Positions 33,381-53,520 of a stretch of DNA of 64,000 nt are shown here, in pieces. The position numbers and the translations under genes were made by a program. The number at the start of each line of letters is the position of its first letter. The stretch's first letter is position 1. The notes below the pieces were generated by a model. The model was not told the origin of the DNA. It ran no database searches and saw only the letters and a program-made list of their open reading frames with translations. The stretch is from Bacteroidota bacterium (GTDB lineage: Bacteria > Bacteroidota > Ignavibacteria > Kryptoniales > JAKASW01). The stretch is taken from assembly GCA_023381615.1 (NCBI GenBank), contig JAMCQL010000065.1:15424-79423 (forward strand). Reading direction: 5' to 3'.

Positions 33381-33545
33381 ACATGTCGCTCCTACGGAGC
33401 TTACAATTGAATCTTATGAACTTACTACAAATATGTCGCCACTACGTGGATAGAAGCTCCGTCAGGAGCCACATGTTTGTCCGAAGGATCCTTTGGATAG
33501 GGAAAAGACTAAGGTCAAATTATAGCTCCGTATAGGAGCGATATG
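33381..33545. repeat. Cluster of four REP-like units (ATGTCGCTCCTACGGAGCT type), two in each orientation
   Basis: Units at ~33381-33401, 33425-33451, 33455-33500 (interrupted) and 33524-33545. Confidence 0.8.
33480..33497. repeat. 18-bp palindromic element, copy 1 (inside a REP-like unit)
   Basis: TCCGAAGGATCCTTTGGA. Confidence 0.85.
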
Positions 33546-33555
33546 TGAAAAGTTC

Positions 33556-33573
33556 TCCGAAGGATCCTACGGA
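33556..33573. repeat. 18-bp palindromic element, copy 2 (intergenic)
   Basis: TCCGAAGGATCCTACGGA. Confidence 0.85.
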
Positions 33574-33792
33574 AAGGAAAATTGGAGACAATATTTTGCT
33601 TGGCTCTGGTTCTGAATAATGATTTGCATTCAGAATGTGTAAAGCCCGACCTCATCGGCAATATCATCAATAAATTTGTCGCAGACCCTTTGAAGTTCAC
33701 TGCTGCCTGTGTTCTAAATCGCAAGAAGTGTTTACGAAATACGTTCGCCAATGAAAGCCCATTCCAAATAAATCTCAACGAGAATTTTAACT

Positions 33793-33821
33793 TTGGAAAA
33801 TTGCGTCTTGGCTGTTAAATT
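33793..33821 (+). promoter_or_regulatory. Putative sigma70 promoter of rpmB
   Basis: TTGGAA-17 nt-TAAATT, with a GGAG SD upstream of ATG 33844. Confidence 0.5.
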
Positions 33822-33843
33822 AGTGAAAATTCTGGAGATGTAA

Positions 33844-34035
33844 ATGGCAAAAGTTTGTGATGTCTGCGGTAAGAAACCCATTTTTGGACATAACATCAGT
33901 CACGCACATAATATCACTAATCGCAGATGGGATCCGAATCTGCAAAGCGTTCGCGCAATTGTAGACGGCAAAGTAAAACGAATAAAGGCTTGCGCTTCCT
34001 GCATTAAACAGGGACGCGTTCGGAAAGCTGCGTAA
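33844..34035 (+). CDS. rpmB: 50S ribosomal protein L28
   Basis: MAKVCDVCGKKP..GHNISHAH..T.RRW.PNLQ. Confidence 0.97.
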   Translation: MAKVCDVCGKKPIFGHNISHAHNITNRRWDPNLQSVRAIVDGKVKRIKACASCIKQGRVRKAA

Positions 34036-34083
34036 TAGAAAACTTCACTTTGAATATTTTTTTCATTTCCAAAGAGAACCAAT

Positions 34084-35157
34084 TCACTCAGCCTGTAACG
34101 TCCCCTTCTTCGATTCCTTCTTTGTAATACGGTAGGATTCAAGCCCCCAGTAAGTTTCTTTCGCAATTACTCTAAACACGGTGTAGAGCGGCATTGCCAG
34201 CACCATGCCCAAAACTCCCTCCAGGTCGGCGGCAACAAGAATCAAAAGGACGATAGTCAATGGATGCATTGAAGCTCCACGCGAATAAACTGTCGGGACT
34301 ATAACTGTATCGTCAAGTATTCTTATCGCCGCAAAGAGTATCACTATCGGCAAAAGCATGCCGAAATTTCCTGTTTGCACAAATGAGACTATTATTGCCG
34401 GCACTGCTCCTACAATTGGACCAAGGTAAGGGATAAGGTTTGCGACTCCAGCCACTGCGCCAATCACCAAGGCATACTTCACACCCATAAACAGCAAACC
34501 TAATATAGACAGGACACCGACGACAGCCGCTTCAGTTAACCAAGCACGAATGTACCGTCCGAGCTGGATTCTAATCTTATGTACGACATTCAACGTCATT
34601 TCAAAATACCTGTTGGGAACAAGCGCAATGAAACCGCGCATTATTGAATCTCCGTCTTTCAGAAAGAAAAAAGTCACAAACGGAACGATCACAAGTATCA
34701 TAAGCACGGAACCGGCGCTCGTCAGGATCGACAACCATTCGCTCGCTAATTGAACGGTAATTTCATTTACTCTCCCGGAAACGTTTCCGAAGTTAATGAA
34801 AGGGAATTTAGTCTGCAGTTCCGACTGGATAGCTTGAAGCCGTTCACTGAAGCCGGGCGCTTTCACAGCCTCTTCGATGCTTACGACTTGAGCAATCAAA
34901 GGCGGTAAAAATGTTCCAACCAATCCGAAAATAACTAACGCTATCAAGAGATAGATAATTAAAATACCGTAAACACGTTTTACACCCTTCATCTCGAATG
35001 TATCCACTACGGGCGATAACAGGAAAGTAAGTAGTATTGCGATAAGGAGAAGTATAAAAACACTTCCGAGCAGAGACAAAAACCAAAGAACAAATAAGAG
35101 AAAGGCGACCAGCAAAGAAACTTTGAAACTGTTCTTTTTAAATATCGACAGCATCAT
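34084..35157 (-). CDS. AI-2E family transporter
   Basis: LLSPVV, FFFLKDG, NLIPYLGP, HPL, GMVLAMP; start placed after a GGAG SD. Confidence 0.88.
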   Translation of the reverse strand: MMLSIFKKNSFKVSLLVAFLLFVLWFLSLLGSVFILLLIAILLTFLLSPVVDTFEMKGVKRVYGILIIYLLIALVIFGLVGTFLPPLIAQVVSIEEAVKAPGFSERLQAIQSELQTKFPFINFGNVSGRVNEITVQLASEWLSILTSAGSVLMILVIVPFVTFFFLKDGDSIMRGFIALVPNRYFEMTLNVVHKIRIQLGRYIRAWLTEAAVVGVLSILGLLFMGVKYALVIGAVAGVANLIPYLGPIVGAVPAIIVSFVQTGNFGMLLPIVILFAAIRILDDTVIVPTVYSRGASMHPLTIVLLILVAADLEGVLGMVLAMPLYTVFRVIAKETYWGLESYRITKKESKKGTLQAE

Positions 35158-35782
35158 AATCTCCATCGAACATTTTCCGAACGACTTTTCTGATCACATC
35201 CCAATCGAATCCCCGTCTCGCAAGAAATGCAACAAGTTTTTCACGTCTCTTCTTCAGTTCATATCGTTTCAGCGAACGAATCTTGATTTCAGCGGCTTGC
35301 AAGGCGAACTCAATCTGCGTTTCGTCATTGCTGACGTCGGAGAGCGCTTGTGATGCGGTTTCTTTTGACACGCCTTTCTCGCGCAATTTTCTTTCTAACT
35401 CTCTCTTCCCTATCGGTTTCGATGCAACTTTACTGGCAATGAATGCTTCCGCGAAACGCACATCGTCGACAAGTCCAAGGTTCGTCAGCTTATCGAGAAC
35501 ACGATTGATAGCTCCCGGCGGAAATTCTTTCATGTGCAGCCGCTGGCGAAGTTCCGCTGTAGTTCTCATTTGATAGTTCAGGAGCCGCATCGCTGCGATG
35601 TAAGTGTCTTGATACGATTGGGCATCTTGAATTTGCTGCATCCTTTCGCTTGATATTTCATCGTTGCGCCGGAGACCGAAGTCAACAATTACTTCCTTAC
35701 TCAAAAGAAGTTCGCCTTCCTCCTCGAAGCATACCTTAAACTTCCCGCCGCGATGTGCTTTTTCAATTGACACGATACGCAT
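35138..35782 (-). CDS. recX: Regulatory protein RecX
   Basis: Directly downstream of recA; ELRQRL, DD.RFA, L.EKGV, FLARRGF. Confidence 0.9.
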   Translation of the reverse strand: MRIVSIEKAHRGGKFKVCFEEEGELLLSKEVIVDFGLRRNDEISSERMQQIQDAQSYQDTYIAAMRLLNYQMRTTAELRQRLHMKEFPPGAINRVLDKLTNLGLVDDVRFAEAFIASKVASKPIGKRELERKLREKGVSKETASQALSDVSNDETQIEFALQAAEIKIRSLKRYELKKRREKLVAFLARRGFDWDVIRKVVRKMFDGDYDAVDI

Positions 35783-35811
35783 ATTTCAGCGTATTCCAAG
35801 GAAGCTCAATT

Positions 35812-36909
35812 TCATTCTTTTTGTTTCTTTGTTTCCTTTCCACGTGATCCTTCGGACGCCTTCTCCGCTTTCTCGGTTGGCGCGGAGTTCCCGTTGTTAT
35901 TACCCTTTCCTAAACTTAGACCAAGCTTCGTGCGGACTTCAGTTTCGAGTTCTTTGAAAGCATCCGGATTTTCCTGAAAATATTTTTTAGCCGCGTCTCT
36001 TCCCTGACCAAGCCGTTCGTTCTTATAGGAAAACCACGTCCCGCTTTTTTGAACCACATTATGCTCGACGCCGACATCTAACATGTCACCAACTCTGGAA
36101 ATTCCTTCATTATATTGGATATCGAACTCAACTTCTTTGAACGGCGGCGCCACTTTGTTTTTTACAACTTTCACCCGGACTCTGTTCCCAACTATATCTG
36201 CTCCATCCTTGATATGATCGCGCTTTCGAATATCCAAACGCAATGCGGCATAAAACTTCAGCGCGTTTCCACCGGTTGTCGTCTCCGGATTTCCGTAGAC
36301 AATTCCGATTTTGCTGCGCAGTTGATTCGTGAAAATTACAGAAGTATTGCTCTTGTTGATTGCCGCAGTAAGTTTCCTCAGCGCCTGCGACATCAAACGA
36401 GCCTGAGCGCCCATCTGCGCATCTCCCATTTCTCCTTCGATCTCCGAGCGCGGCGTCAGAGCAGCGACCGAGTCAATCACGACAACATCGATTGCGCCGC
36501 TACGGACAAGCGTCTCAACGATATCAAGCGCCTGCTCGCCAAATTCCGGTTGAGACAAAAGCAGGTTATTCGTGTCGACGCCGATCCGCTTTGCGTAATT
36601 CAAATCAAGCGCGTGCTCAGCATCAATGAACGCGGCAATCCCGCCAAGTCTCTGCGCCTCCGCAATGACGCTCAAGCATAATGTCGTCTTGCCGGAAGAT
36701 TCCGGGCCGAAAATTTCAGTGATCCTTCCGCGTGGAATACCGCCGATTCCCAAAGCCCAATCGAGAGATATCGAGCCGGTCGAAATGAAATCGATTTTTG
36801 CAATCGGGCCTTCCCCCATTTTCATGACCGCGCCCTTGCCGTAATCTTTCTCGATCTGGTTGAGCGCAATGTCCAATGCTTTCAGCTTCGCCTCTTTTTC
36901 CTCACCCAT
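35812..36909 (-). CDS. recA: Recombinase RecA (start at MGEEKE, after an AAAGGAG SD)
   Basis: [36 protein letters not shown]. Confidence 0.99.
35839..35856. repeat. 18-bp element, copy 3 (diverged, in the recA tail)
   Basis: Coding strand TCCGAAGGATCACGTGGA, 2 mismatches to consensus. Confidence 0.6.
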
Positions 36910-36937
36910 TTTCAAAACTCCTTTCCCGACGTCCGCC

Positions 36938-37552
36938 TTAGGCGGATTCGGACTGTTGTAGTGGATATTCAAATAAGATTTTGTATTCAGATCCCGACCT
37001 GTCGGGATTCAATGTGCTTTCGAATAGTGCAACACTCTTTGGGAAAAATGGCTCCAGAAACAATTTACCTTGACCTGCGAATTTCTGCAAGTCTCCGAAG
37101 GATCCTGGGGAGAAGTAATTTCCCCCGCCTCTTTGCCTTTCGCCCCCTTTGAGCCGCGCAATCGTGATATGGGACTTAAAAGCCCGCGATTCGGGAATAA
37201 TTCCAAATTCCTTGGTGACCGACTTGATGGAGTCGGCAATTGAAGCGAGCGTTCCATCATCCTCGCAGTCCAGCCAAATTCCTCTTCTCACCTTCTCGCT
37301 TGGGAAATAATTCATTCCAACAATTTCGACCTGAGAAGATTTGAAAGATGACTTCTCTAATTCGCCAACGACGGATGAATAAAGCCTTTCGACATTCTTG
37401 GATTCGAAGTCGCCGATAAATTGGAGAGTGATGTGGAGTTTGTCTTTGCCTTCGATTCTCGCTTCCGTGATTGAAGAGCGAAGCTCTTTTTGGAGCTTTG
37501 TGATCCCTGCTTTTGTGGCTTCAGGTAAGGTTGCACCAAAGAATATTCTCAT
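36938..37552 (-). CDS. thpR: RNA 2',3'-cyclic phosphodiesterase (2H family)
   Basis: Two HxT motifs ([16 protein letters not shown]); located between cinA and recA. Confidence 0.92.
37094..37111. repeat. 18-bp element, copy 4 (in thpR)
   Basis: TCCGAAGGATCCTGGGGA. Confidence 0.85.
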
Positions 37553-38824
37553 TCACTCCAAACCTAAGATTCGTTTCCTCACAAGTTCGAGCGCCGCCTG
37601 AGACGCGCGGTCTTTGAATCGAATGCGTTCATCCGGAAAGATGTGCTTCTTCACGACTGTACCGGCTGAATCGGCAACACCGATGTAAACCAAACCGACG
37701 GGCTTATCCGGAGTTCCCCCTGTTGGTCCCGCGATTCCTGTAACGGATACGCTGATATCCGTTCCGGAAATTTTTCTGATTCCTTCCGCCATCGCAAGCG
37801 CGACTTCTTCGCTGACTGCGCCAAATTTTACAAGAAGCTCCTCCGGTACGTGCAATATTTCCATCTTAGCTTTGTTGCTGTAGCTGACAACTCCGCGCTC
37901 GAAGTAAGCAGAACTTCCGGAGATGTTTGTGATCCGATGGGAAATGTATCCGCCGGTACAGCTCTCCGCAGCTGAGATTGTAAGTTTCCGTTCTCTCAAG
38001 AGTTTGCCGACAGCTTCTTCCAAGTCGACTTCTCCTTCTCCGAAGGATCCTGTGGACGAGTAAATGTATTTCTCCGCTTTGCTTCGAATCTTTCTTTCTA
38101 CCTCGGCGACGATCGAATCCGCTTCCTCCGTTGTGGCTGCTTTCACCGTGATGCGCAGCCGTACACCAAACTGGCTCGGAAGAAATGCTAACTTCGCGCG
38201 TCCGCCAAGTATTTCGTCCACATCGCCAAGAAGTTGAAACAAAGCCGATTCGGCAATCCCGGTTGTCTTCAGCACCCTGTGTTTAATAACCTGTCCGGCC
38301 GCCTTCGCCTTCAATCGCGGAACGACATATTCGGTCAGGATATTCTGCATCTCGTAAGGGACACCGGGCATTACGGCAAAGAATTTATTCCCCTTCTCGA
38401 AAAGCATTCCGGGCGCCGTGCCCCAATGGTTCATCAGCGCTTCGCAGCCTTCGGGAACAAGCGCCTGTTCTTCATTCACTTTTATCACAGGAATGTTCCG
38501 CTTCGAAAGCCTATCTCGAACATTCTCCAACACTGAATTATTCATCACCAATTTCACGTTAAAAAAATCGGCAACAACTTTCTTCGTGATGTCGTCATGA
38601 GTTGGGCCAAGACCGCCGGTAACCAATACCGCATCGAAGTTTTCGTAATACTCTTTGAACGCGCTCATGATCTCGTCGTATTCATCACCCACCACAACCA
38701 TGCGCGTAATTTCCATTCCGATTTCCGACAGTTTCTGCCCAATAAAAGCCGCGTTCGTATTTGTTACCTGACCGATCAGGATTTCGTCGCCAATCGTTAT
38801 TACTGCCGCAGTTTTCATTTTCAC
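37553..38824 (-). CDS. cinA: Competence/damage-inducible protein A (MocF domain + NMN deamidase)
   Basis: IGDEILIG, GGLGPTHDDIT, AESCTGG, GAVSEEVA, TGIAGP. Confidence 0.95.
   Translation of the reverse strand: MKMKTAAVITIGDEILIGQVTNTNAAFIGQKLSEIGMEITRMVVVGDEYDEIMSAFKEYYENFDAVLVTGGLGPTHDDITKKVVADFFNVKLVMNNSVLENVRDRLSKRNIPVIKVNEEQALVPEGCEALMNHWGTAPGMLFEKGNKFFAVMPGVPYEMQNILTEYVVPRLKAKAAGQVIKHRVLKTTGIAESALFQLLGDVDEILGGRAKLAFLPSQFGVRLRITVKAATTEEADSIVAEVERKIRSKAEKYIYSSTGSFGEGEVDLEEAVGKLLRERKLTISAAESCTGGYISHRITNISGSSAYFERGVVSYSNKAKMEILHVPEELLVKFGAVSEEVALAMAEGIRKISGTDISVSVTGIAGPTGGTPDKPVGLVYIGVADSAGTVVKKHIFPDERIRFKDRASQAALELVRKRILGLE
38039..38056. repeat. 18-bp element, copy 5 (in cinA)
   Basis: TCCGAAGGATCCTGTGGA. 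Confidence 0.85.
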
Positions 38825-40012: not shown

Positions 40013-41263
40013 ATGACAGATAGAATCCTTCGGTCGCCAGAGGCTTTGCTGAAGGCGTGCCTTTCGCTTTCAAGAAAAGTCTTCCCGGAAATTGTAAAAC
40101 TAAGACGCCAACTCCATCAGTATCCCGAGCTGGCTTTTCAGGAAATCAATACGGGAAAACTTATTGCACAAGAGCTTAGTAAACTCGACATCCGCGTGAA
40201 AAAGGGAGTCGGAAAAACCGGGCTTGTCGGAATTCTTAAAGGCAACGGAAATGCGGGAGTAGTCGCGCTGCGCGCCGACATGGACGCTTTGCCAATCATT
40301 GAAGAAAGCGGCGTTCCCTTCACAAGTAAAAACACCGGCAAGATGCACGCCTGCGGACACGATGCTCACATGGCTATGCTCATCGGAGCGGCAAAGATTT
40401 TGTCTCAACTCAAGAATGAAATCCGCGGCACCGTGAAATTCATTTTCCAACCGAGCGAGGAAAAAAATCCGGGCGGCGCACCATCAATGATAAAAGACGG
40501 CGCTCTCTCCGATCCGGATGTGGATGTTATTTTCGGACAGCACATTACCGCTGATATTCCTGCCGGCAAGTTCGGATTCAGAGCAGGTCCACTGTTGGCG
40601 TCGGCAGACGAGATTTATTTTACTGTCATCGGAAAAGGCGGGCACGGCGCAAAGCCTCATGAAACCATTGATCCCGTTTTAATTGCCGCGCAGATTATCA
40701 CTTCACTGCAAAGCGTCATAAGCCGCATGAGAGATCCGCTCGAGCCATCGGTTCTTACAATTGGCTCGATCCACGGCGGAACTGCCCCGAACGTTATCCC
40801 GGACTCCGTAAAACTCTCCGGAACTTTGAGAACGATGAACGAAGTGTGGCGGAAGAAGGCACTCGGACTCATAAAACGAACGGCTGAAGATTGCGCAAAA
40901 AGCTTCGGAGGAAAATGCAAAGTGGAAATCAGCCACGGCTATCCTGTTCTCGTGAATTCGGAGAAGGAAACCGAACAAGCCCGAAGCTCCGCCGAATCGC
41001 TTTTCGGTAGAAGTTCTGTTTTGCCGGTGCCGCCGGTAATGGGCGCAGAAGATTTTGCTTACTTCCTGCAAAAAATACCGGGGACATTTTGGTGGATAGG
41101 AGCCGGCAACAAGAAGAGTGGCGCAGCCGCGTCAATTCATAACTCGAAGTTTAAGATCGACGAAACCGCGATGATGCACGGTTCAGCTTTCCTTGCTTAT
41201 CTCACCATCGAATACTTGTCCCAAAGGGATCCATTCGGAAAGCAGCGTGAACGCAGCCGCTAA
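40013..41263 (+). CDS. M20D family amidohydrolase
   Basis: LHQYPEL, RADMDALP, MHACGHD, FQPSEE, GAEDF. Confidence 0.93.
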   Translation: MTDRILRSPEALLKACLSLSRKVFPEIVKLRRQLHQYPELAFQEINTGKLIAQELSKLDIRVKKGVGKTGLVGILKGNGNAGVVALRADMDALPIIEESGVPFTSKNTGKMHACGHDAHMAMLIGAAKILSQLKNEIRGTVKFIFQPSEEKNPGGAPSMIKDGALSDPDVDVIFGQHITADIPAGKFGFRAGPLLASADEIYFTVIGKGGHGAKPHETIDPVLIAAQIITSLQSVISRMRDPLEPSVLTIGSIHGGTAPNVIPDSVKLSGTLRTMNEVWRKKALGLIKRTAEDCAKSFGGKCKVEISHGYPVLVNSEKETEQARSSAESLFGRSSVLPVPPVMGAEDFAYFLQKIPGTFWWIGAGNKKSGAAASIHNSKFKIDETAMMHGSAFLAYLTIEYLSQRDPFGKQRERSR

Positions 41264-44114
41264 AGAAAACATCTCCAAGCTTCTCCAGAAAGTCTTTGAA
41301 TTAGTTGTCAATTCCGGCGCGGACGTCAACCCGACGGAGTATATTGGAAAAATCGAGCAGCGGAGCGCAGCGCTGCCGGATCAATTCATGGCGCTGAATA
41401 ATCTCGAACGATTTCTTGCCGCAACACCCAATTCGGCCTCCATTTTATCGGACTTCTCGAAGAACGAAAAACTTCTTGGCGATTTCATGAATATCGTTTC
41501 AACGAGCCAGTACCTCGCAGATATTTTCGTGCAGCACCCTTCGTATTTTCGTTACCTGTTTTCTCCGTTAGGAATAGAATCCCAGCTCAATCCCGACTTC
41601 CTGCTTTCTGAACTTTCGAGGCAAGCTGAGATATACAAAGATGTCTCTCATAAAAGCGATTACATCAGAAGAATTTACAAACGCGAAATACTTAGAATCG
41701 GCGGGCGCGACATTTGCGGCCGGGATAATATCATAGACACCACGCTGCAAATTTCACAATTGGCTGAATCGATTCTGAGAGTCTCTTTCGAAATAACTGC
41801 TGATGAGTTCAAAGAAAAACGTGGGATTTCTCCGCCACAGATAAGTTGTATTGCGCTCGGAAAATTTGGCGGCAGCGAACTCAATTACAGTTCCGACATC
41901 GATTTACTTTTTCTTTATTCCGTGGCACAGGACAAAAGCGACCACGATGCTTCGGAACAGGCGAACTATTTCGTGAGCCGGTTGATAAAACATCTAACGT
42001 CGGAATCTGTCGAGGGACATCTCTACAGGATTGATTTGCGGCTTCGCCCTGACGGCGCCGCCGGTGCAGTGGCGCAAAGTCTCGAGAGCGCAATTGCTTA
42101 TTATGAATCTCGCGGCGAACTCTGGGAAAGACAGATGCTGATCAAAGCGCGGCATGCTGCGGGAGACGAAACAGTCAGCCAGACATTCTTGAATCATCTT
42201 AGGCCGTTTATTTACCCGCGAACTTGGCTGGAAAATCCTCTCGACGAAATCCCGCGGATGAAGATCCGAATCGAGACCGCCAATCAGAGTGAACTGAACA
42301 TTAAACTTCGCCGCGGCGGAATTCGCGACATTGAGTTTATCGTGCAGGCGCTGCAATTACTCAATGGCGGCTCGCGTCCGAATATTCAAACCGGCAGCAC
42401 ACTAAACGCGATCACGCTCCTCGAGAAAAGCAAGATCATAAACAAGCAAGAGGCTTCCCTGCTTTCCAACGCTTACAAATTTTTCAGGCTGGTGGAACAC
42501 AGGCTTCAGCTTTTCAAAAACCTTCAGACGCACACTTTGCCATCAGACGCGGCGGAATTCAGAAATTTGTCGAAACGGTGCGGTTACAAGAACGAACGAA
42601 AGTTTAGGAATGAACTGTTCGGGTACTTCGACGCTGTCGCAAATTTATTCAACAACGTCTTTCATATCGAGCAGTCCATTGAGAGAACAGAGATCGAACA
42701 ATTTCTGGAAGGCTCGATCAATGACCGGAGAACTCGCCGCGTTATGGAAAACTATGGTCTCGTGAACACGGAAGAGAGTTACAAAAATGCTCAATTTCTT
42801 TCGCGCGGCATCACGCGGGCGGGAGACGTTGAGTTCCCCGCTGGAGTAACCAAGGCGTTTCGGGAAATCGCGCCGCAGCTTTTCGAAGACATAAAGCTGA
42901 CAGTGGATCAGGACATGACGCTGAAGAATCTCTCGCGGTTGGCGCCGTCGGTAAAAAGCTTGGAGGTCTTTTATAAATCTCTCGCCGACGAGCATTTCAG
43001 AAAGTTGATCCTGACACTTTGCTCGAAGGGAACGCGGTTTGTCGATTATTTGACGGTCGAGCCCTTGCTTCTCGACCTGATCATTTCCCCGGAGAGGCTT
43101 CTTGATACAGAAATCTTCTTCACAGATTTCTTACCCGTGCCGCTCCTGAAGGAATTCAACGAGATCAAGTTGGGCATGTTGTATTTGCTTGGCGAAATTT
43201 CACTTTCCGAAATGCACAGCAAGTGGACTAACGTAGCCGAAAGATTTTTCGTGCATGCAATCGAAAAGATTTTTCCCAAGAGCCGGCCTGCAGTTATTGC
43301 AGGCGGGAAATTTGGATCGAGAGAAATGTCCTTCATGTCGGATCTCGATGCCATTTTCATTCTTCCGGACAAACTTGCACGAAACAAGCCATCGTTCGAA
43401 AAGAAAATTCCAAAAATTCAGGAATCGCTCCTCGACGAAAATGGCAATCCGGTGTTTTCGGTCGACTTGAAACTACGTCCGGAAGGAAAAAGTGCGCCGC
43501 TTCTGATGACCGAATCCGAATACGCGCAGTATTTGGAGAAGCGTTTGTCCGTTTGGGAAGTAATGTCAATGACGAGGTTCAGAAATCTTTCTACTTCAGA
43601 AAATATCTTTTCAATGATCACGAGAACCGTCGGGAGCTTCAAGCTGACTCAGTCATCTCTGAAAGAAATTGCCTCGCTCTACAATAAAGTCATTCAGAGC
43701 AAGAGTTACTTCGATGAGATTGACGTAAAGTTTGGAGACGGCGGCATGTTTGCAGTTGAGTTTCTGGTCCAGACGCTCGCGCTTAATAGTGCTGAAGCGT
43801 TGATGGAATCTTTTCCGACTGCGATAGTCAATATGATAGAAAAGCTGAAGGATATTGATGCGATATCTGAAGAAATTGCCGACGAAGTGAAAGAAAGCTA
43901 CGAGTTTTACAGAATGATAGAGTTTTCAAATTACGTCTCATTGTCGAAGACGAACCACAAGATTCCGCATGATGAGCGTGAACTTACTTCACTTGCGGCG
44001 CATCTCGATTTCAAAAACCCGGATGAGTTCATGGACAGTCTCAAATCACGGATGAGACGAATGAGTTCCCTGTTCAAGAAAGTAACCGCAGATCTCATTG
44101 CGGCAGCAGGCTGA
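41247..44114 (+). CDS. glnE: Glutamine synthetase adenylyltransferase/adenylyl-removing enzyme-like
   Basis: Two nucleotidyltransferase repeats (GKFGGSELNYSSDIDL...DLRLRPDG; GKFGSREMSFMSDLD...DLKLRPEG); probable GTG start at 41247. Confidence 0.85.
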   Translation: MNAAAKENISKLLQKVFELVVNSGADVNPTEYIGKIEQRSAALPDQFMALNNLERFLAATPNSASILSDFSKNEKLLGDFMNIVSTSQYLADIFVQHPSYFRYLFSPLGIESQLNPDFLLSELSRQAEIYKDVSHKSDYIRRIYKREILRIGGRDICGRDNIIDTTLQISQLAESILRVSFEITADEFKEKRGISPPQISCIALGKFGGSELNYSSDIDLLFLYSVAQDKSDHDASEQANYFVSRLIKHLTSESVEGHLYRIDLRLRPDGAAGAVAQSLESAIAYYESRGELWERQMLIKARHAAGDETVSQTFLNHLRPFIYPRTWLENPLDEIPRMKIRIETANQSELNIKLRRGGIRDIEFIVQALQLLNGGSRPNIQTGSTLNAITLLEKSKIINKQEASLLSNAYKFFRLVEHRLQLFKNLQTHTLPSDAAEFRNLSKRCGYKNERKFRNELFGYFDAVANLFNNVFHIEQSIERTEIEQFLEGSINDRRTRRVMENYGLVNTEESYKNAQFLSRGITRAGDVEFPAGVTKAFREIAPQLFEDIKLTVDQDMTLKNLSRLAPSVKSLEVFYKSLADEHFRKLILTLCSKGTRFVDYLTVEPLLLDLIISPERLLDTEIFFTDFLPVPLLKEFNEIKLGMLYLLGEISLSEMHSKWTNVAERFFVHAIEKIFPKSRPAVIAGGKFGSREMSFMSDLDAIFILPDKLARNKPSFEKKIPKIQESLLDENGNPVFSVDLKLRPEGKSAPLLMTESEYAQYLEKRLSVWEVMSMTRFRNLSTSENIFSMITRTVGSFKLTQSSLKEIASLYNKVIQSKSYFDEIDVKFGDGGMFAVEFLVQTLALNSAEALMESFPTAIVNMIEKLKDIDAISEEIADEVKESYEFYRMIEFSNYVSLSKTNHKIPHDERELTSLAAHLDFKNPDEFMDSLKSRMRRMSSLFKKVTADLIAAAG

Positions 44115-44125
44115 GGGAAAAGTAT

Positions 44126-46120
44126 TTGGAAAGCACGCAAAGGACTTTCCCGACAAAAGGGACTCCTAAACAAAAAGTATCCTCGAAGCTAATCGATTCG
44201 GGCAGACTAAAATTTGAGAGAACCGATTTTCTTATTGCCGGTTCGCTGGCGGCGTTCTCTTTCTTCGTTTATTTGCTCACGATGTCGAGAAGCATTCCAC
44301 CCATCGACGGCGGAGAGCTAACAACCGTCCTCTGGACACTCGGCATCGCTCACCCAACAGGCTACCCACTTTTTACGCTTCTCGGATATGCATTTGTCCA
44401 CATTCCAATCTTTCGTGAAGTTGCAATGCGGGCAAACTTGTTCGCCGCGGCATGCACAGCGCTTGCCGGCGGAATTTTCTATTTTGTGTTCCAGCGGGCG
44501 CAGTTGTTGCTTGCGCTAGGTGAGCCTACTCTAAACAAAAAGTCGATGAGTTCGAATCAAGAACAATCGAAGAATTTTAAGAGCCCCACGGATGACGTCT
44601 CTCCTTTTCGTTTAGCTTCGACGATTGGTGCACTTGTGCTCATCTTTTCGAGGACGTTCTGGGACCAGAGCACGTCGGTGGAAGTCTATCCGCTCCAGCT
44701 TTTACTTTTTGCATCTATTCTGACGGTGTGGCTCGGATTTTATGCGCGCCAGACGAAATCACGCGGGTTTTTTGCAGGCTTGTTCTTGGGGTTAGGCTTC
44801 ACCAACCACATGACAACGGTTCTGACCGTTCCTGCGCTTCTATTTCTGTTGTTCTCGAGCTACAGACAGAGAAAATTCGAATGGCGAATTCTCTATTTCG
44901 TAATATTCGGTGGAGCTTTAGCTTCCCTGCTGTACATTTATCTTCCTCTGCGCGCTTCGCAGAATCCGATTCTCGATTGGGGAAATCCGGATACTCTCCA
45001 AAGATTTTTCTGGCACGTTACCGGCAGACAATTCAGGACGTGGATGTTCAGCTCGTGGGATGTGTTTCAACACCAATTGGGAGTTTTCTTTTCAAGTCTT
45101 TATCCGGAATTTAGGATTACTCTTGTTGTGGCAATTATAGGAATTGTCATTTCAATTTTCTCATATAGAAAATATTTCTGGTGGACGATCCTTCTTCTTA
45201 TCGGCGACCTGATCTACGCGGCAAATTACAACATCCATGACATCGCCAGTTATTTCCTGCTTGCTTATATTGCGCTGACACTTTTCGCGGTAATCGGATT
45301 TCGATTTGCGGTTAACATTTTGCTTAAGTTTTTCCACGGGAATGTTGCGGTCGCCGCTCTGCTGGTTTTGTTCCCTGCGTTCTCAGTGATTGCAAACTTC
45401 AGCGAAGTCGACGAAAGCAAAGATTATTCGGTGGAAATGTACACACGAGATATCTTGACGAGTCTCCCGCAAAATTCTGTCGTGATCTCATACCAGTGGG
45501 ACACTTTTGTTTCGGCATCTCTGTATTATCAAAACGTAGACAAACTCCGCAAGGACATAATTGTCGTTGATAAAGAATTGCTGAGACGATCGTGGTACGC
45601 AGCAGAAGTGCACAATCGTTACGCTTTTCTTTTTCCGAAAGATGATCCTGTTTATAAGGCTTATCAGGATAACCTGCGGCTTTTTGAAAACGATCTGCCA
45701 TACGATCCCAATTCTATCGAGCATAGTTACTCCAATTTTATTCGCGAGATAATTTTAGGCTCGCTGCAGAATGAAAGAGAGGTCTTTGTTGGACCTGAGA
45801 TCGAGGATCAATATCTCTATGGCCTGAACAAAGTCCCTTACGGCTTACTGTTCGAAGTCAAAACAGATACGGACTATGTTCCATATAACGCGGCTGGATT
45901 GGACGGCTTCCGGGCAGCGGAGAAAATACACAGTGACTATTCAAAGCAAATCTTAGGTTTCTATACAAGAATGTCCCTTGCGAGGGCGGCGTACGAATAC
46001 AATCATAAATATCTTAATCTTACTTTATCGTGGCTCGATAGGGCGCTTCAAGTCGATCCAACCTTGCAAGCCGCACAGACAGCGAAACTCCAAATATTGC
46101 AGGATCTTAAATCGAAATGA
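44126..46120 (+). CDS. DUF2723 / TMEM260-like multi-TM GT-C protein
   Basis: D.GEL, GIAHPTGYPLF, EVY, NH, YLPLRA..NP..DWGNP, TPR-like tail. Confidence 0.8.
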   Translation: MESTQRTFPTKGTPKQKVSSKLIDSGRLKFERTDFLIAGSLAAFSFFVYLLTMSRSIPPIDGGELTTVLWTLGIAHPTGYPLFTLLGYAFVHIPIFREVAMRANLFAAACTALAGGIFYFVFQRAQLLLALGEPTLNKKSMSSNQEQSKNFKSPTDDVSPFRLASTIGALVLIFSRTFWDQSTSVEVYPLQLLLFASILTVWLGFYARQTKSRGFFAGLFLGLGFTNHMTTVLTVPALLFLLFSSYRQRKFEWRILYFVIFGGALASLLYIYLPLRASQNPILDWGNPDTLQRFFWHVTGRQFRTWMFSSWDVFQHQLGVFFSSLYPEFRITLVVAIIGIVISIFSYRKYFWWTILLLIGDLIYAANYNIHDIASYFLLAYIALTLFAVIGFRFAVNILLKFFHGNVAVAALLVLFPAFSVIANFSEVDESKDYSVEMYTRDILTSLPQNSVVISYQWDTFVSASLYYQNVDKLRKDIIVVDKELLRRSWYAAEVHNRYAFLFPKDDPVYKAYQDNLRLFENDLPYDPNSIEHSYSNFIREIILGSLQNEREVFVGPEIEDQYLYGLNKVPYGLLFEVKTDTDYVPYNAAGLDGFRAAEKIHSDYSKQILGFYTRMSLARAAYEYNHKYLNLTLSWLDRALQVDPTLQAAQTAKLQILQDLKSK

Positions 46121-48225: not shown

Positions 48226-48227
48226 TT

Positions 48228-49031
48228 TTGAAGAAAACACTTTTCGTACTATCACTCAGTTTACTGATCGCTGCATGTCAAAAGGCTGATAATGTCATAA
48301 TCGACAGCTCGCAGCCAATCAACGTGCAACTGACATACTTTGACAAAGACAGCATCGACATTGCCCGGTATATCAGCAATACTTCAACAAAACCAACGAT
48401 TAGCGACAGCTTTCAAGTGGTCTTAAGCTCAACACAGAATTTTGCATATCTTGATGTGAAAGTAGAAAACGATTCCGGCATGACCTTGAATGATGTTTCG
48501 TATTCTACTGCCGCGGGGCGCTTAGTATCAGGAACGATTACGACAGCCTTTTCAAATGTTTACGTCGGCGATATTACCTATACCTTTACTGCATACAACA
48601 AACAGGCTTCACCGGGAGACTTCGCGATAAAGTTGGTGCGGCTTTTCAATTCAAAGAACCAGGCACCCGTTATAGACAGCGTATCGGTGCCTGACTCCGT
48701 ACAGATAGATCCAACATCCAATGTTGTCTTTAATCTTTATGCGTTCGTCCACGATGCGGCGGGCCTGAGCAATATTGCAAAAGTATATTTTAACACGACC
48801 AAGCCTGATGGGACCCCATCTTCCGGAAATCCCTTCATGATGTATGATGATGGTGGTGCAAGCGGCGCCCCCGGTGATGACGACGCGGTCGCAAATAACG
48901 GTACCTACACTCTGGCAATCCAACTTCCGCCAGGCACAGCGATTGGAACCTATGGGTTCACATTCTATGCAGTTGACCGCAGCGGCCTCTCAAGCACACC
49001 GATCTCACGCAATATTAAGGTATATAAATGA
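48228..49031 (+). CDS. Lipoprotein with an Ig-like C-terminal domain
   Basis: Lipobox IAAC; MYDDG...DAVANNGTYT acidic loop (choice-of-anchor-X-like). Confidence 0.7.
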   Translation: MKKTLFVLSLSLLIAACQKADNVIIDSSQPINVQLTYFDKDSIDIARYISNTSTKPTISDSFQVVLSSTQNFAYLDVKVENDSGMTLNDVSYSTAAGRLVSGTITTAFSNVYVGDITYTFTAYNKQASPGDFAIKLVRLFNSKNQAPVIDSVSVPDSVQIDPTSNVVFNLYAFVHDAAGLSNIAKVYFNTTKPDGTPSSGNPFMMYDDGGASGAPGDDDAVANNGTYTLAIQLPPGTAIGTYGFTFYAVDRSGLSSTPISRNIKVYK

Positions 49032-50557
49032 AATCAACTCTCGCTCTTGCAATTGCCTTTCTCGTCACCAGCGCCAATGCGCAATTTCTCAAACAGACTT
49101 ACAAACTGGATGGACTGCCCTCACAGCCTTCAAGTAATTCAATCAGTCAAATATTGATAGTGAACGGAGAAGTCTATATCGGAACTGACAAGGGATTGAA
49201 CATGACCAACGGCGGCGGACTCGCTCTTCAAACGAACATCGGGACCAATGGCCCAACAGGTGTAAGTGTAAATGCAATCGCCGTCAAAGGAGATACAATA
49301 GTTGCGGCAGTTTCGACCACAATGCAGCAAAGTGGAACAACCTACCCTGTGGGCAAAGGGCTCTATGCTTCAACTGATGACGGAACAACGTGGACTCAGG
49401 AGCCGCAAAGCCTTGACTCACTCGCTGATTCAACTGTCACTTTCGGAAATAACGTCCTGACTGCACTTCCCGTTACGACAGACGTTAACAACATTTCGTA
49501 CTCGCTTGCTTTTTATAAAGGTTATCTCTACGCCGCCAATTTTGCAGGCGGATTGAGAAGAAGCGCCGATCTCGGCAAAACATGGCAAAGAGTTGTTCTG
49601 CCACCTGACTATCTCAACTACATAACCGAAGACAGCAGCTATACTTTCCAATTGTCTCCTGTCGCCGGCGCCCTCACCTCGGAAAGCAATCTGAATCACA
49701 GAGTCTTCTCCGTCTATTCGGATGGCGACAGTGCATTGTACGTCGGCACAGCGGACGGAATAAACAAGACCACCGACAATGGCTATTCCTGGTATAAGTT
49801 CACTCACCAAAATCAGTCAAGTCCAATATCGGGAAATTTCGTCGTCTCGATAACTGCTCAAGACTATGGCACTGAACACAACATCTGGGCGGCGACAGTG
49901 AATGCAAACGATCCAACCGAAATGCCGGCTTTGAGTTACACGACTGACGGCGGTGCAAGCTGGCATTACATCCTTGCAGGGCACTTCTTTCACAGTGTCG
50001 CATTTCAGGGAAACATCGTGTATGGTGCGTCTGATGACGGGCTTTTCAGAACTTCAGACCTGGGACGCTCTGCCCAAGTGATTACCAACATCTTTGACCC
50101 AACAACAAGACAGTCGATTTTATCCCAAGCTTTTTATGCGGTTGCAACGAACGGAGATTCGATATGGGTCGGATCAGGCGATGGCCTCGCTATGGGAATC
50201 GATAACGGGACAGGATTTGATTTGAGTCAGTGGCATGTTTTCAGAGCATTCGCCAGCGTTGCCGCCACAAATTCGACGTACTTTTATCCGAATCCATTTT
50301 CCCCGCAGCTCGATGTTGGTAGAATACATTATAATGTCAAGACTCCGAACAGCACGGTAACGGTCAGGATCTACGACTTTGCAATGCACATCATTTACAC
50401 TTTGACGCAGAACGCGGCGCGCAGCGCAGGCGAACAGGATGAAGTTTGGAACGGCATGGACTCAACCGGAAAGACGGTCGACAACGGAGTCTATTTCTAC
50501 AGTGTAGTCATAAATAACCAAGGCCCGATCTGGGGAAAAATACTGGTGGTGAGATGA
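49028..50557 (+). CDS. Secreted beta-propeller (BNR repeats) with a FlgD/T9SS-like C-terminal domain
   Basis: S.D.G.TW repeats; YPNPFSP...IYD...WNG.D..G..V.NGVYFY. Confidence 0.78.
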   Translation: MKSTLALAIAFLVTSANAQFLKQTYKLDGLPSQPSSNSISQILIVNGEVYIGTDKGLNMTNGGGLALQTNIGTNGPTGVSVNAIAVKGDTIVAAVSTTMQQSGTTYPVGKGLYASTDDGTTWTQEPQSLDSLADSTVTFGNNVLTALPVTTDVNNISYSLAFYKGYLYAANFAGGLRRSADLGKTWQRVVLPPDYLNYITEDSSYTFQLSPVAGALTSESNLNHRVFSVYSDGDSALYVGTADGINKTTDNGYSWYKFTHQNQSSPISGNFVVSITAQDYGTEHNIWAATVNANDPTEMPALSYTTDGGASWHYILAGHFFHSVAFQGNIVYGASDDGLFRTSDLGRSAQVITNIFDPTTRQSILSQAFYAVATNGDSIWVGSGDGLAMGIDNGTGFDLSQWHVFRAFASVAATNSTYFYPNPFSPQLDVGRIHYNVKTPNSTVTVRIYDFAMHIIYTLTQNAARSAGEQDEVWNGMDSTGKTVDNGVYFYSVVINNQGPIWGKILVVR

Positions 50558-51483
50558 AAACTTTCTCTTTATTGCTGATGCTCTGCTCTGTCTCTTTTGC
50601 TCAGAGTTATCCCGGCAGCTTTGCACGGATCGGACTGAATGCAAAAGGAATGTCACTCGGAAATTCGTTGTCGGCGGTGACAACAGGCAATGTCTACAGT
50701 TTTTATAATCCTGCACTTGCGTCGTTCCAGGACGGCGGGAGTGTTTCCGCATCTGTCGCCCTTTTATCATTGGACAGGCAGTTGAACGTTTTGACATACA
50801 CCCAAGGCGTTAAACCAACTGCCGGTATATCTTTGGGAATAATAAACGCCACAGTCTCCAACATCGACGGCAGAGACAACGACGGCGTGCACACGACAAA
50901 TCTCTCGACAAGCGAAAACTTGTTCTACTTCAGTTTCTCAAACAGGTTCATGGAAAAGCTATCTCTTGGCGTGAGTCTAAAAATGTACTACTACAAACTT
51001 TATTCAAGCCTGACTTCCACTTCCATCGGTTTTGATTTTGGCGGGGTCTATCAACTCTCAAATTCTTTTTCTATTGGTGTTGCAGCAACTGACATTGGTG
51101 AAAGCTACCATTGGGATTCTTCAAAGCTATATGGAACCGACGGGTCGAATTTCTCAACTCCATTCCCGCATGTTTTCCGAATTGGCGCCGCTTATAATTT
51201 GCCGCAGTACGATCTGTCTGTTTCAGCTCAGTACGATATTGCACCGGCGCCTCTCAGCGCGCTCAGGGCTGGCATCGAGTTCACTCCGCTCGACGTCCTT
51301 GCGCTCCGGGCAGGACTCTCCGCCGGAAATGAGCAATATGTCGGGACCAAAGTTACTCCATCGTTCGGTTTCGGAGCAAAACTTGCCTTCCTCGACTTCA
51401 CGCCCGAAATCAACTATGCTTATGTCTTCGAACCGTTCACCCCTTACGGCATACAAACTTTGACATTAATTTTTGGGTTTTGA
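50554..51483 (+). CDS. PorV/PorQ-like outer membrane beta-barrel
   Basis: Signal peptide, AKGMSLGN, FYNPA, terminal F. Confidence 0.72.
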   Translation: MKTFSLLLMLCSVSFAQSYPGSFARIGLNAKGMSLGNSLSAVTTGNVYSFYNPALASFQDGGSVSASVALLSLDRQLNVLTYTQGVKPTAGISLGIINATVSNIDGRDNDGVHTTNLSTSENLFYFSFSNRFMEKLSLGVSLKMYYYKLYSSLTSTSIGFDFGGVYQLSNSFSIGVAATDIGESYHWDSSKLYGTDGSNFSTPFPHVFRIGAAYNLPQYDLSVSAQYDIAPAPLSALRAGIEFTPLDVLALRAGLSAGNEQYVGTKVTPSFGFGAKLAFLDFTPEINYAYVFEPFTPYGIQTLTLIFGF

Positions 51484-52394
51484 CTTCCATGAAATATCTA
51501 AATTCGATTTTCGCTTTTCTGATACTTGCGTCTTCGACGGCTTTCTCCCAAGCTGGCAGTGCAGGTTTTCAGATTCTGAGACTTGGTTATTCCGCACGCG
51601 ATCTTTCGCTCGCTAACTCCGCCGATGCAATCACAAAAGAGCCAATAGCGGTGTTCATTAATCCAGCTGGACTTGCTTCGGATGAAAGCGAGAATGGCAT
51701 CGGCTTAGACTTCATGCTGACACACAGAACTTACATTGCAGGAACGACCATCGATTTATTTGGAACGCGTTTCGAGAGCGGGGGCATTTCTTTCGGCACA
51801 AGTCTGCTTCTTTCAAGTGTTCCGGATATTGAAGTCAGGACTGTCCCCGGCGACCCACAAGCGACATTTTCCGCCAAAGATTTCGTGTTTGCCGCTGGAG
51901 TCGCGCGCAAATTCGACAAAATGGACATCGGCGTTTCAGCAACGTATCTGTATGAGAAACTTTTCGTCTACGAATCGCAGGGATTTGCTTTCAATGGCGG
52001 AGTAAAGTATTCACCTGCGCAGAATATTGAGTTGGGACTTTCCGCAGGAAATTTCGGATCAACGACGGCAATGCTCTCGCAGACTATCGCTCTTCCAATC
52101 TTCCTGCGCGTCGGAGGAAGCTACACTAAGACTTTAGACGATAACTTCTCTGTAACCGGTTTCCTCGGCGCTGCAACGTACAAGTCCGGCGGCATCACAC
52201 CGAGCGTTGGAGCGGAATTCAACTATCAGAATATACTCAAACTCAGAGCGGGCTACGCTTCGGGCAGCGACATAACAGGATTTTCTTTTGGAGCCGGCGT
52301 GAACTACAATTTCTTAAGATTCGATTACTCTTACGTCCCGATGAAACTCGATTTCGGCAATAGCCAAACGTTTACATTGTCATTCATTCTCTAA
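51480..52394 (+). CDS. PorV/PorQ-like outer membrane beta-barrel
   Basis: AGFQILRLGYSAR, FINPAGL, LRAGY, FDYSY; start may be ATG 51489. Confidence 0.78.
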   Translation: MTSMKYLNSIFAFLILASSTAFSQAGSAGFQILRLGYSARDLSLANSADAITKEPIAVFINPAGLASDESENGIGLDFMLTHRTYIAGTTIDLFGTRFESGGISFGTSLLLSSVPDIEVRTVPGDPQATFSAKDFVFAAGVARKFDKMDIGVSATYLYEKLFVYESQGFAFNGGVKYSPAQNIELGLSAGNFGSTTAMLSQTIALPIFLRVGGSYTKTLDDNFSVTGFLGAATYKSGGITPSVGAEFNYQNILKLRAGYASGSDITGFSFGAGVNYNFLRFDYSYVPMKLDFGNSQTFTLSFIL

Positions 52395-52395
52395 G

Positions 52396-53520
52396 ATGTC
52401 CAAAGGATCCTTCGGACTTGATGTTCTCATCGTCGTCAGCTCAGATCCTCGATACGACACGCGGAGCACAAAGTATCTAAGCGCTCTCCTCGAAGCCGGA
52501 TTTAAAGCAAAGGTTGTAGGAATCTCCTCGGACGGAACGGCAGAGAAAAAAGAAGAGTTGGTCAGAGCGCCCGTCAGCGCGAAGGGCGGAAAGAGCTTCT
52601 TTCTCGAGTTCTACCAGAAAGTAATACCGGAAATGTATAGATCGCCTGCAAAGATCGTAATTGCAGGTGATTTGTTTTCCCTGCCCCCTGCAATCATAAA
52701 CAAACACCGATACTCTAAAGGCGCAAAACCCGTTAAGCTGATCTACGACTCGAAAGAACTTTACGAAGAGCTTCCCAGTCTTAAAGCAAAGCGCACCAGC
52801 TTCCTCTTTTGGAATCTCGTAGAGAAAAGCTCCATAAGATATGTCGATGCAGTACTAACGGTAAATCAATCTATCGCCGATATTCTTGAAGCGAGATGGC
52901 ATTTGCCGACAAGCGTGGTAATGAACGTGCCTGATCTGAGCAATCCGCCAATACCGAAGGATAAGTCTTTTGATAAAATCTTTCTGGCATTCTCAGGAGG
53001 GTTGCAGCGTGGGCGTGGTCTGCACAATCTGATAAATTTATTGACAGTTTTGCCGGAGAAATATGAACTGCGTTTCGTGGGCGATGGTGTTTTGCGCAAA
53101 GAATTGGAACGGCAGGCTCTCTCGCTGGAACTCGAGAAGAGAGTTCATTTCGTCGGAAGAGTGAATAACTCCGAAGTAGTGAACGAACTTTCCAAATCGC
53201 ACATCGGCATTTACTTAATGGAAAACACAGGACTCTGCCACTATCTCGCTCTGCCGAACAAGTTTTTTCAATTCATTTCGGCAAGACTTCCTGTTATCGT
53301 GTCGAACTTTCCGGAGATGGAAAAGATTGTGAATCAATTCCAGATAGGGTTCGTTGTTGATCCATCAAATATCGAGGAAATTGCCAAAGCTGTGCTTGAG
53401 TTGACAAAAGATGAAGGAACCTATCACAAACTTGCTGTAAACTGCGAGAAAGCGGCAAAAGTATTGAATTGGCAGGTCGAGAAAGAGAAATTTCTAAAAG
53501 CGGTACGTAACTTAGTTTAG
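52396..53520 (+). CDS. GT4 glycosyltransferase
   Basis: YDSKELY, GGLQRGRGL, LPNKFFQFI..RLPVI. Confidence 0.85.
   Translation: MSKGSFGLDVLIVVSSDPRYDTRSTKYLSALLEAGFKAKVVGISSDGTAEKKEELVRAPVSAKGGKSFFLEFYQKVIPEMYRSPAKIVIAGDLFSLPPAIINKHRYSKGAKPVKLIYDSKELYEELPSLKAKRTSFLFWNLVEKSSIRYVDAVLTVNQSIADILEARWHLPTSVVMNVPDLSNPPIPKDKSFDKIFLAFSGGLQRGRGLHNLINLLTVLPEKYELRFVGDGVLRKELERQALSLELEKRVHFVGRVNNSEVVNELSKSHIGIYLMENTGLCHYLALPNKFFQFISARLPVIVSNFPEMEKIVNQFQIGFVVDPSNIEEIAKAVLELTKDEGTYHKLAVNCEKAAKVLNWQVEKEKFLKAVRNLV
52399..52416. repeat. 18-bp element, copy 6 (immediately after the ATG of the GT4 gene)
   Basis: TCCAAAGGATCCTTCGGA, the exact reverse complement of copy 1. Confidence 0.85.

Follow-up and report, generated by a model that had tools for sequence, protein, structure and literature searches.

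A recently active 18-bp mobile DNA element with intergenic and in-frame intragenic copies in an Ignavibacteria genome

The region analyzed here, referred to as the window, is a stretch of 64,000 nucleotides (nt) of contig JAMCQL010000065.1 (positions 15,424 to 79,423) in the assembly GCA_023381615.1 of a Bacteroidota bacterium of the class Ignavibacteria (3.37 Mb, 86 contigs, 47% G+C). It contains six copies of an 18-bp near-palindrome, TCCGAAGGA-TCC-TNY-GGA, two of them located between genes and four located within the genes for RecA, a LigT/ThpR-type phosphoesterase, CinA, and a group 1 glycosyltransferase. This sequence is a real, non-autonomous, and recently active mobile DNA element. The proposal of the initial annotation that a minimal piece of mobile or templated DNA had been inserted here was thus supported by exact 18-bp gains relative to orthologues, by copy number, and by the occurrence of filled and empty alleles in metagenomes.

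A search with the pattern TCCGAAGGATCCTNNGGA allowing up to two mismatches recovered matches at 33480, 33556, 35839, 37094, 38039, and 52399 only, which are exactly the six sites named in the initial annotation, and relaxing the search to three mismatches added only one weak site. At up to two mismatches, the six copies of TCCGAAGGATCC-TNY-GGA account for 11 strand matches in the window, whereas 0.05 were expected and none of 100 dinucleotide shuffles reached 11; six sites yield 11 strand matches because the element is nearly its own reverse complement. Copies 1 (33480 to 33497, plus strand, TCCGAAGGATCCTTTGGA, no mismatches) and 2 (33556 to 33573, plus strand, TCCGAAGGATCCTACGGA) are intergenic. 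Copy 3 (35839 to 35856, minus strand, TCCGAAGGATCACGTGGA, two mismatches) reads SEGSRG in the C-terminal tail of RecA, copy 4 (37094 to 37111, plus strand, TCCGAAGGATCCTGGGGA) reads SPGSFG on the minus strand in the phosphoesterase, and copy 5 (38039 to 38056, plus strand, TCCGAAGGATCCTGTGGA) reads STGSFG on the minus strand in CinA. Copy 6 (52399 to 52416, minus strand, TCCGAAGGATCCTTTGGA) reads SKGSFG directly after the ATG of the glycosyltransferase (MSKGSFG). These four readings, as well as the variation of the NN positions in the five good copies (TT, AC, GG, GT, and TT), agree with those reported initially. Around copies 1 and 2 (33380 to 33560), with copy 1 inside it, lies an array of other mini-hairpins with stems of 4 to 5 bp from other repeat families, such as GCTCC-GTCA-GGAGC, GCTCC-GTAT-AGGAGC, CTCC-TACG-GAG, and CCAC-TACG-TGG.

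The names of the four host genes were checked with Pfam. The RecA copy occupies residues ~352 to 357, past the end of the RecA_C domain at residue 330, and the CinA copy (residues 257 to 262) falls between the CinA_KH (182 to 255) and CinA (267 to 418) domains. In the phosphoesterase, the insertion forms residues 148 to 153 at the edge of a low-confidence, length-variable loop. The structure model of this protein had a mean predicted local distance difference test score (pLDDT) of 83.5, with the lowest values (<50) at residues 137 to 145, just before the insertion, and a mean of 48 for the block of residues 141 to 150; the congeners differ in length around this stretch.

The recA-thpR-cinA block is syntenic in congeners at 69% to 74% DNA identity, and for both ThpR and CinA, all 11 orthologues align with a clean gap of six residues, corresponding to a gain of exactly 18 bp in the DNA. 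The RecA orthologues have the six-residue gap in 10 of 11 cases, the remaining one (L012) carrying a single residue (GCG) at this position and, consequently, a 5-residue, 15-bp gap. The DNA alignments show that the sequences flanking the RecA, ThpR, and CinA insertions are native and that there is no duplication, as the initial annotation had described for copies found in both orientations. Elsewhere in the genome, comparison with the five closest relatives gave clean gaps for the copies at C28:5896, C4:38475, and C9:16206 (5 of 5 relatives each), the last of which is read PKDPAE, and C15:10527 had a clean gap relative to the one relative available. The gaps were ambiguous for C28:4135 and C9:28735 (2 of 5 clean), both of which are in length-variable regions, and the orthologue search for C43:27673 gave no match in five relatives. 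Altogether, the gap of 6 amino acids (aa) that the initial annotation had expected was clean in seven of the nine genes tested, the other two being those in length-variable regions, and the glycosyltransferase site is empty in four congeners. In the CinA relatives, the ancestral empty site resembles half of the element (TCC|GAAGGA, exactly the constant 9-mer in four relatives), and so does that in ThpR (TACTTC|GAC; L002 to L012); this likeness may be due to chance in Glu/Lys-rich DNA or may be a clue to target choice.

The glycosyltransferase copy has a longer history. Among 22 congeners, the identical 18 bases are present in two and a version with one mismatch in one, while 11 have a degenerate six-codon version (for example, MSTGHFE-LDVL), four are empty (M-LDVL), and four have longer N termini; this copy is an old insertion. 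The copy (52399 to 52416; loci L244 and L245) is 18/18 identical in three species in which the nearby DNA is ~70% identical. Its conservation suggests constraint, homogenization by copies located elsewhere, or insertion at the same spot more than once.

Public metagenomes provided the alleles predicted for a mobile sequence. Thirteen runs cover the region, four of which were compared over 20 kb. In one of these, X10, from another habitat and another study, a contig with a depth of 5.8 that is ~95% identical to the window (75 differing letters over ~1.5 kb) contains three 18-base copies that the window lacks, all of them inside a stretch of 120 bp. The insertion at 44101/44102, CGCAGGATCCTTCGGAGA, adds AGSFGE to the C-terminal tail of a GlnE-type protein; that at 44184/44185, TCCGAAGGATCCTACGGA, interrupts TCCTC|GAAGC and gives the N-terminal tail of a TMEM260-like membrane protein the residues PKDPTE (both proteins assigned with Pfam); and that at 44216/44217, TCCGAAGGATCCTGCGGA, interrupts TTTG|AGAGA and is read VRRILR. 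The three copies carry differing variants (TGC, TAC, and TGC). Although found in a single contig, these insertions are three exact members of the family and therefore are not assembly noise; the contrast between filled sites in X10 and empty sites in the window means that the element has been recently mobile. The X10 contig that spans recA-thpR has only nine gap letters, and the recA and thpR copies are therefore common to the X10 strain. No presence/absence difference at element sites was listed for the covered parts of runs X9, X7, and X11, and contigs of several runs from three studies match the window copies with zero to one differing letter. Both empty and filled alleles, for which the initial annotation had recommended a search, are thus found in metagenomic contigs. 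A related 21-base element, TCCCAAAGGGATCCATTCGGA, lies at 41219 to 41239 in the window, at the N terminus of the GlnE-type open reading frame (ORF), where it is read CPKGIHSE; in X10, a different 21-base hairpin is nested inside it, behind position 41226.

In the assembly as a whole, there are 78 exact sites (85 strand matches), and the 12-mer TCCGAAGGATCC occurs in 119 copies. The numbers of sites with zero, one, two, and three mismatches on the best strand were 78, 41, 36, and 67, respectively, compared to 0, 0, 0, and 12 in a control in which the pattern was read backwards, so that the genome-wide count called for initially is far over chance. The family comprises roughly 200 recognizable members in this genome. 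The copy number differs ~15-fold or more among congeners: of 18, 7 had one to six strand matches and 11 had none. The sister family was represented by 12 genomes, none of which gave a match. When 400 further genomes were sampled evenly from the phylum, only five, all of the same class, had copies (one or two each), and no other high-copy-number genome was found in this sample.

A wider scan of 596 Gb of species genomes was expected to give ~280 matches by chance, so that single matches carry no meaning, but the matches listed included several metagenome-assembled genomes (MAGs) with many copies. Five of these were counted whole and had 135, 50, 25, 24, and 22 strand matches. The element-rich MAGs include one labeled Thermodesulfovibrionia and one labeled Neomarinimicrobiota, with others labeled Bacteroidota/Ignavibacteria. 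The RecA proteins of the five MAGs counted whole are only 61% to 67% identical to that of the window, and these MAGs are therefore distant from the window genome. In one element-rich genome (G038), many copies lie no more than ~100 bases from the end of a contig. Breaks in the assembly may be caused there by the element or its carriers, possibly through presence/absence heterogeneity in the population. In a MAG labeled Bacteroidetes bacterium OSL_B.mb.4 (L064, 656 to 3196), an ORF for an 846-aa sensor kinase contains four copies, three read SEGSFG and one read NPKDPLD, with a fifth copy upstream; this locus also has other repeated mini-inserts, e.g., EGSPKESVTFG and GEAGGEAGG.

The element is asymmetric, one half (TCCGAAGGA) being constant and the other containing a variable triplet or, in larger relatives, a longer hairpin. 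At 115 TCCnnnGGATCCnnnGGA sites, one triplet is nearly always GAA, while the other is AAA (25 sites), GCA (17 sites), ACA (16 sites), GTA (9 sites), or GAA (7 sites). The TTT form is dominant in the other element-rich genomes. Decay by CpG deamination as the origin of the TTT and TGT variants was ruled out by the asymmetry (25 GAA/AAA sites versus 1 AAA/AAA site) and by the prevalence of TTT elsewhere. Some larger relatives keep TCC-TNY-GGA and have the constant half swapped for TCCCGAC-nnnn-GTCGGGA, and in others TCCGAAGGA is followed by different hairpin modules, some of which are nested within the GGATC|C center. A strong single hairpin was dropped as the defining feature, the predicted folds being weak, and a pair of GNA mini-hairpins would account for only about half of the variants. 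The genome also contains further short palindromic families, at least a dozen of them, with 13 to 38 copies (e.g., GGATCTCGACGAGTC, TCCCGACnnnnGTCGGGA, and AGGTGACCGTCACCT), and some of these join the 18-mer in composite repeats of ~150 bp. In a MAG labeled Ignavibacteriales DeMMO6_2 (L059, L067, L072, and L089), the 18-mer forms the center of a long imperfect palindrome of ~130 bp (ATGAGTCTT...AAGAC...CTCAT), a MITE (miniature inverted-repeat transposable element)-like carrier with at least four copies.

Oriented alignment of 83 copies gave the flank consensus tTg|TCCGAAGGATCCTNYGGA|cArGa, with T at -2 (61 copies), A at +19 (60 copies), and G at +21 (68 copies). The flanks, initially described as unrelated, thus do share a short consensus. 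The resulting insertion preference, TTN|NARGA, is equal in 32 coding and 25 noncoding copies, and the consensus recurs in six other genomes, including the Thermodesulfovibrionia and Neomarinimicrobiota MAGs. On the strand on which the constant half comes last, the 5' flank is tCYTG. At one locus (L041), three copies are found in an 8-bp tandem repeat, in every other unit and always at TTA|CAAGA; the register of the repeat is intact, which demonstrates target choice without duplication. No target site duplication was detected at the three orthologous sites aligned as DNA, the three L041 sites, or the three new X10 sites. The copies are clustered, with 13 neighbor gaps of <2 kb, compared to 4.6 expected (maximum of 13 in 1,000 simulations).

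The consequences for the host proteins were assessed genome-wide with a crude ORF and codon-score model and no gene finder. This model places 34 of 90 copies with confidence in ORFs of at least 200 aa and 15 more within 20 codons of an ORF 5' end; many copies sit just upstream of start codons. Among the 34 confident coding copies, 23 are read S-x-G-S-x-G, 3 RRILR, and 8 PKDPx(D/E) (chi-square P = 7e-5). The initial statement that coding copies begin at a codon boundary holds for the four in the window but not for the genome, in which 23 of 34 are in that phase. The target motif is itself codon phased in long ORFs (~43%, 35%, and 23% expected); the bias persists against this expectation (chi-square = 10.9; P = 0.004) and is mainly a depletion of RRILR (3 versus 11 expected; P = 0.001). 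The orientation relative to the gene is even (15:17), and positions favor the ORF termini, with 8 of 34 copies in the last tenth. The new X10 insertions fall in all three codon phases. The excess of the Ser/Gly frame in older copies is thus in part target bias and in part selection, by which the RRILR frame is lost: insertion is phase blind, and selection retains bland readings (S-x-G-S-x-G and PKDPxE) in tails, linkers, and loops. Genes stay open because the length is a multiple of three and the frames are almost free of stop codons. The initial suggestion that the length and the Ser/Gly-rich reading permit the colonization of proteins is supported, with the nuance that insertion itself is not confined to codon boundaries.

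As to how the element is moved, we tentatively favor mobilization in trans by a host HUH-type tyrosine (Y1) transposase of the IS200 or RAYT (repetitive extragenic palindromic [REP]-associated tyrosine transposase) kind, a proposal that may well be wrong and to which we give somewhat less than even weight. The element is gained as an exact 18-bp unit at TTN|NARGA-like sites in either orientation, between or within genes. In the proposed mechanism, it would move as single-stranded DNA, and the host-encoded enzyme would recognize the constant hairpin, which is small, together with a short target on its flank, as is the case for IS200/IS605 and IS91. Such a mechanism would explain the lack of duplication, the presence of a target beside one end (tCYTG|element), and the precise length of the unit. 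Candidate enzymes are present. A profile search of the genome gave 11 PF01797 matches, of which 3 pass the NCBIfam IS200/IS605 cutoff and 2 match best, below the cutoff, the model for REP-associated tyrosine transposases; several of these Y1 genes have hairpin repeat families of their own on their flanks. At contig C75, the hairpins of an IS200-like gene, (T)CCCGAAGGG(A)...ATGATTATA, resemble the constant half TCCGAAGGA; the gene has such hairpins in three other element-rich MAGs as well. Located 77 bp downstream of the C75 gene is a copy of the element. The C75 Y1 orthologues of three element-rich MAGs are 81% to 87% identical, while their RecA proteins are 64% to 67% identical. A scan for repeats consisting of a hairpin and ATGATTATA returned mostly noise, with ~10 real copies. 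A RAYT-like homologue (33% to 47% identity) is present in all five other element-rich genomes, but members of this common family also occur in 6 of 14 control genomes, so that their presence is not discriminating. A profile search for IS91-type Y2 enzymes (PF04986) gave no match in the genome but is uninformative, the controls being equally silent. The RAYT-like/IS200-like Y1 genes at C23:111365-111952, C7:31872-32462, and C16:19436-19993 of the genome studied (G000) have palindromes of their own (CAACCTTGTCAAGGTT..., AACCTTGCGAAGGTT, and CCTCTACGAGG, respectively) and look like classical REP-RAYT arrangements, of which we know no description in this lineage.

A number of observations weigh against this proposal. 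Of 10 Y1 loci inspected, only C75 has the element within ~200 bp, and the copy there looks like an ordinary insertion. The exact 12-mer was absent from all 12 orthologous Y1 loci of other genomes, one of which has a 12-mer with one mismatch, and the element was absent from all 7 Y1 loci of G040 and G042. Within the genus, the presence of a C75-type Y1 homologue and the copy number do not go together: a homologue with 82% identity is found in G017, which has no motifs, while G001, G008, and G012 have motifs and no Y1 match; in G040, the C75 Y1 clade is absent. The search for RAYT or TnpA (Y1) genes flanked by the motif, as proposed in the initial annotation, thus ended with 11 profile matches, none convincingly tied to it. 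The DNA folds predicted for seven copies (-0.3 to -2.7 kcal/mol) are no better than those of shuffled sequences, and the guides and hairpins of IS608-type ends would not fit into 18 nt. Both flanks, not one, are conserved. The ends of the X10 insertion behind 44101 differ by 2 bases in position from the canonical ones, which counts against simple cut-and-paste of a fixed unit. Orientation showed no significant bias relative to local GC skew (28:40; P = 0.18), from which the replication direction was guessed in this fragmented assembly; a mechanism using single-stranded DNA of the lagging strand would predict such a bias.

The weak links to Y1 genes leave room for another dedicated enzyme, such as an unrecognized nuclease/integrase, a recombinase, or a blunt-cutting DDE transposase, that would bind the palindromic TTG|CAA(GA) as a dimer and insert a near-palindromic duplex. 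Conservation of both flanks, which jointly form a short palindrome extended by the element, speaks for such an enzyme, as do the near-palindromic element with its GGATCC center and the unbiased orientation with respect to both genes and GC skew, and the occurrence of element-rich genomes in several phyla suggests a transferable system. We nevertheless consider this explanation unlikely, since no candidate gene was identified, no ORF family of at least 180 aa with three or more copies that could represent a parent insertion sequence (IS) was found in the assembly (MAG assemblies collapse IS copies), and DDE transposition normally leaves target duplications, none of which were seen. Spread without an enzyme, by replication template switching or microhomology-mediated copying with the TT/ARGA flanks and hairpins as switch points, appears more improbable than probable by a wide measure. 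The flank consensus could then be microhomology between donor and target, and the local clustering, including three new copies within 120 bp, the 2-base offset in one new insertion, the half-element likeness of the ancestral CinA and ThpR sites, and the common nested and composite arrangements of hairpin modules are all consistent with it. However, with only 2 to 4 bases, the microhomologies are very short to account for exact 18-bp transfers that have occurred repeatedly, and the clustered X10 copies differ in their triplets and hence are not local duplicates of one neighbor. An identical unit and target also recur in distant phyla, whereas most congeners, with the same replication machinery, have no copies.

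That the motif is not inserted DNA at all but has arisen convergently under selection, as a Ser/Gly linker or a DNA or RNA signal such as an uptake or binding site, is very improbable. The full identity of the glycosyltransferase copy in three species hints at constraint (or homogenization), and the many copies just upstream of start codons could be taken as signals, but orthologues lack all 18 bases at once, and these clean indels already contradict convergence, as do the presence of the same DNA in three reading frames and in noncoding regions and the difference in copy number among congeners. A synthetic linker or adaptor with a BamHI site assembled into contigs comes to mind, since the sequence is palindromic, contains GGATCC, and matches cloning primers in published papers. 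It can be practically dismissed: contigs of several runs from three studies cover the window copies, the element and its flank preference are also seen in MAGs of unrelated projects, and congeners have decayed, degenerate copies at orthologous positions. Taken as a whole, the favored explanation, a mobile 18-bp element moved by an HUH enzyme, remains a tentative one that falls a little short of an even chance.

If these readings hold, the element would be the smallest sequence-specific mobile DNA described in prokaryotes, an 18-nt unit that represents either a new use of HUH enzymes or a wholly unrecognized integrase, spreads between phyla (Bacteroidota/Ignavibacteria, Nitrospirota-type Thermodesulfovibrionia, and Marinimicrobia), and acts as a natural linker insertion mutagen seeding six-residue loops in RecA, CinA, aconitase, and sensor kinases. 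In this full form, the claim is doubtful. In any case, the element is among the smallest mobile DNAs seen and lowers the known size limit of such DNA. With its fixed 18-bp unit, 8-bp target, and fresh insertions in public metagenomes, the element offers a tractable case for how REP-like micro-repeats move, a question that is unsettled for REPs generally, and it continues to supply conserved proteins, in nature, with short in-frame insertions that are visibly filtered by frame and by position (tails, linkers, and loops). The copies are useful as strain markers and probably fragment MAG assemblies. If the enzyme is found, the ability to place a fixed 18-bp cassette at a short target, with no duplication, could be technically interesting.

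In the literature, the motif was present only as cloning primers and no description of the element was found, many journals being outside the search. Several known systems resemble it in part. MITEs have terminal inverted repeats along with target site duplications and a parent IS with the same ends; no duplication was seen at the nine sites compared here, and no multicopy (three or more) ORF family of at least 180 aa was found in the assembly as a parent IS, although MAGs collapse IS copies. Rickettsia palindromic elements (RPEs) are palindromic repeats inserted in frame in conserved protein genes and translated; RPE-1 is ~100 to 150 bp long, and RPEs belong to one alphaproteobacterial genus. 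We know of no recent mobility of RPEs. The present element shares palindromic in-frame insertion with the RPEs, which are also named in the parts consulted of PMC3733652, but it is 18 bp long and its hosts are not Rickettsia. Short mobile hairpins are known from mitochondria, where, according to the portions of PMC2800124 available to us, they are intergenic and sometimes located in rRNA or protein genes at tolerant sites and kept in transcripts. These elements (double-hairpin elements, repetitive hairpin-forming elements, and yeast GC clusters) are likewise very short mobile repeats that include tolerant gene sites, but they are found in organelles, differ in sequence, and in most cases have a length that is not a multiple of three, and no defined target is reported in the same portions of PMC2800124.

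Among the transposons, the HUH elements come closest in their insertion behavior. IS200/IS605 elements cause no target duplication and have a short specific target at one end and small palindromes at their ends. IS91-family HUH elements also lack target duplication and insert next to 5'-CTTG/GTTC, and the IS91 ends used were 89 and 82 bp long (as given in the sections seen of PMC13181058). The lack of duplication and the short target abutting one end (here, tCYTG) are features shared with both groups, whereas their known minimal ends are tens of bases each, and here the whole element is 18 bp and shows no significant strand bias relative to GC skew and no linked transposase.

The nearest analogue known to us is found in the small dispersed repeats (SDRs) of cyanobacteria. 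Elhai (2008) reportedly described these as hairpin-forming dispersed repeats of 21 to 27 nt that are mobile by orthologous presence/absence and have no known transposase, and they are said to occur nested and inside short tandem repeats. The L041 copies in an 8-bp tandem repeat look alike. Compared with the SDRs, the present element is shorter, at 18 bp, probably differs in sequence, and is found in noncyanobacterial lineages. REPIN/RAYT systems have been described (PMC3116915, seen in part), and the parts consulted of PMC3733652 describe intragenic REPs of GTAG/CGTC-tagged families, 20 to 40 bp in length, as well as REPs inside genes, at termini and linkers, where they add amino acids. The intragenic copies and a genome with RAYT-like and IS200-like genes flanked by their own hairpins are points of likeness. 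The element is a near-palindrome with 78 exact and ~200 recognizable copies, but at 18 bp it is below the range of 20 to 40 bp given in those parts of PMC3733652, and neither the GTAG nor the CGTC tag is present in the element or its flank consensus. REPs and REPINs are predominantly extragenic, whereas at least 34 of 90 copies are inside ORFs here, as judged with the crude gene model; no RAYT gene is flanked by this element, and it has a TTN|NARGA target and filled and empty alleles in different strains. With these likenesses and differences, the element is an unusually small variant of REP/SDR-like micro-repeats.

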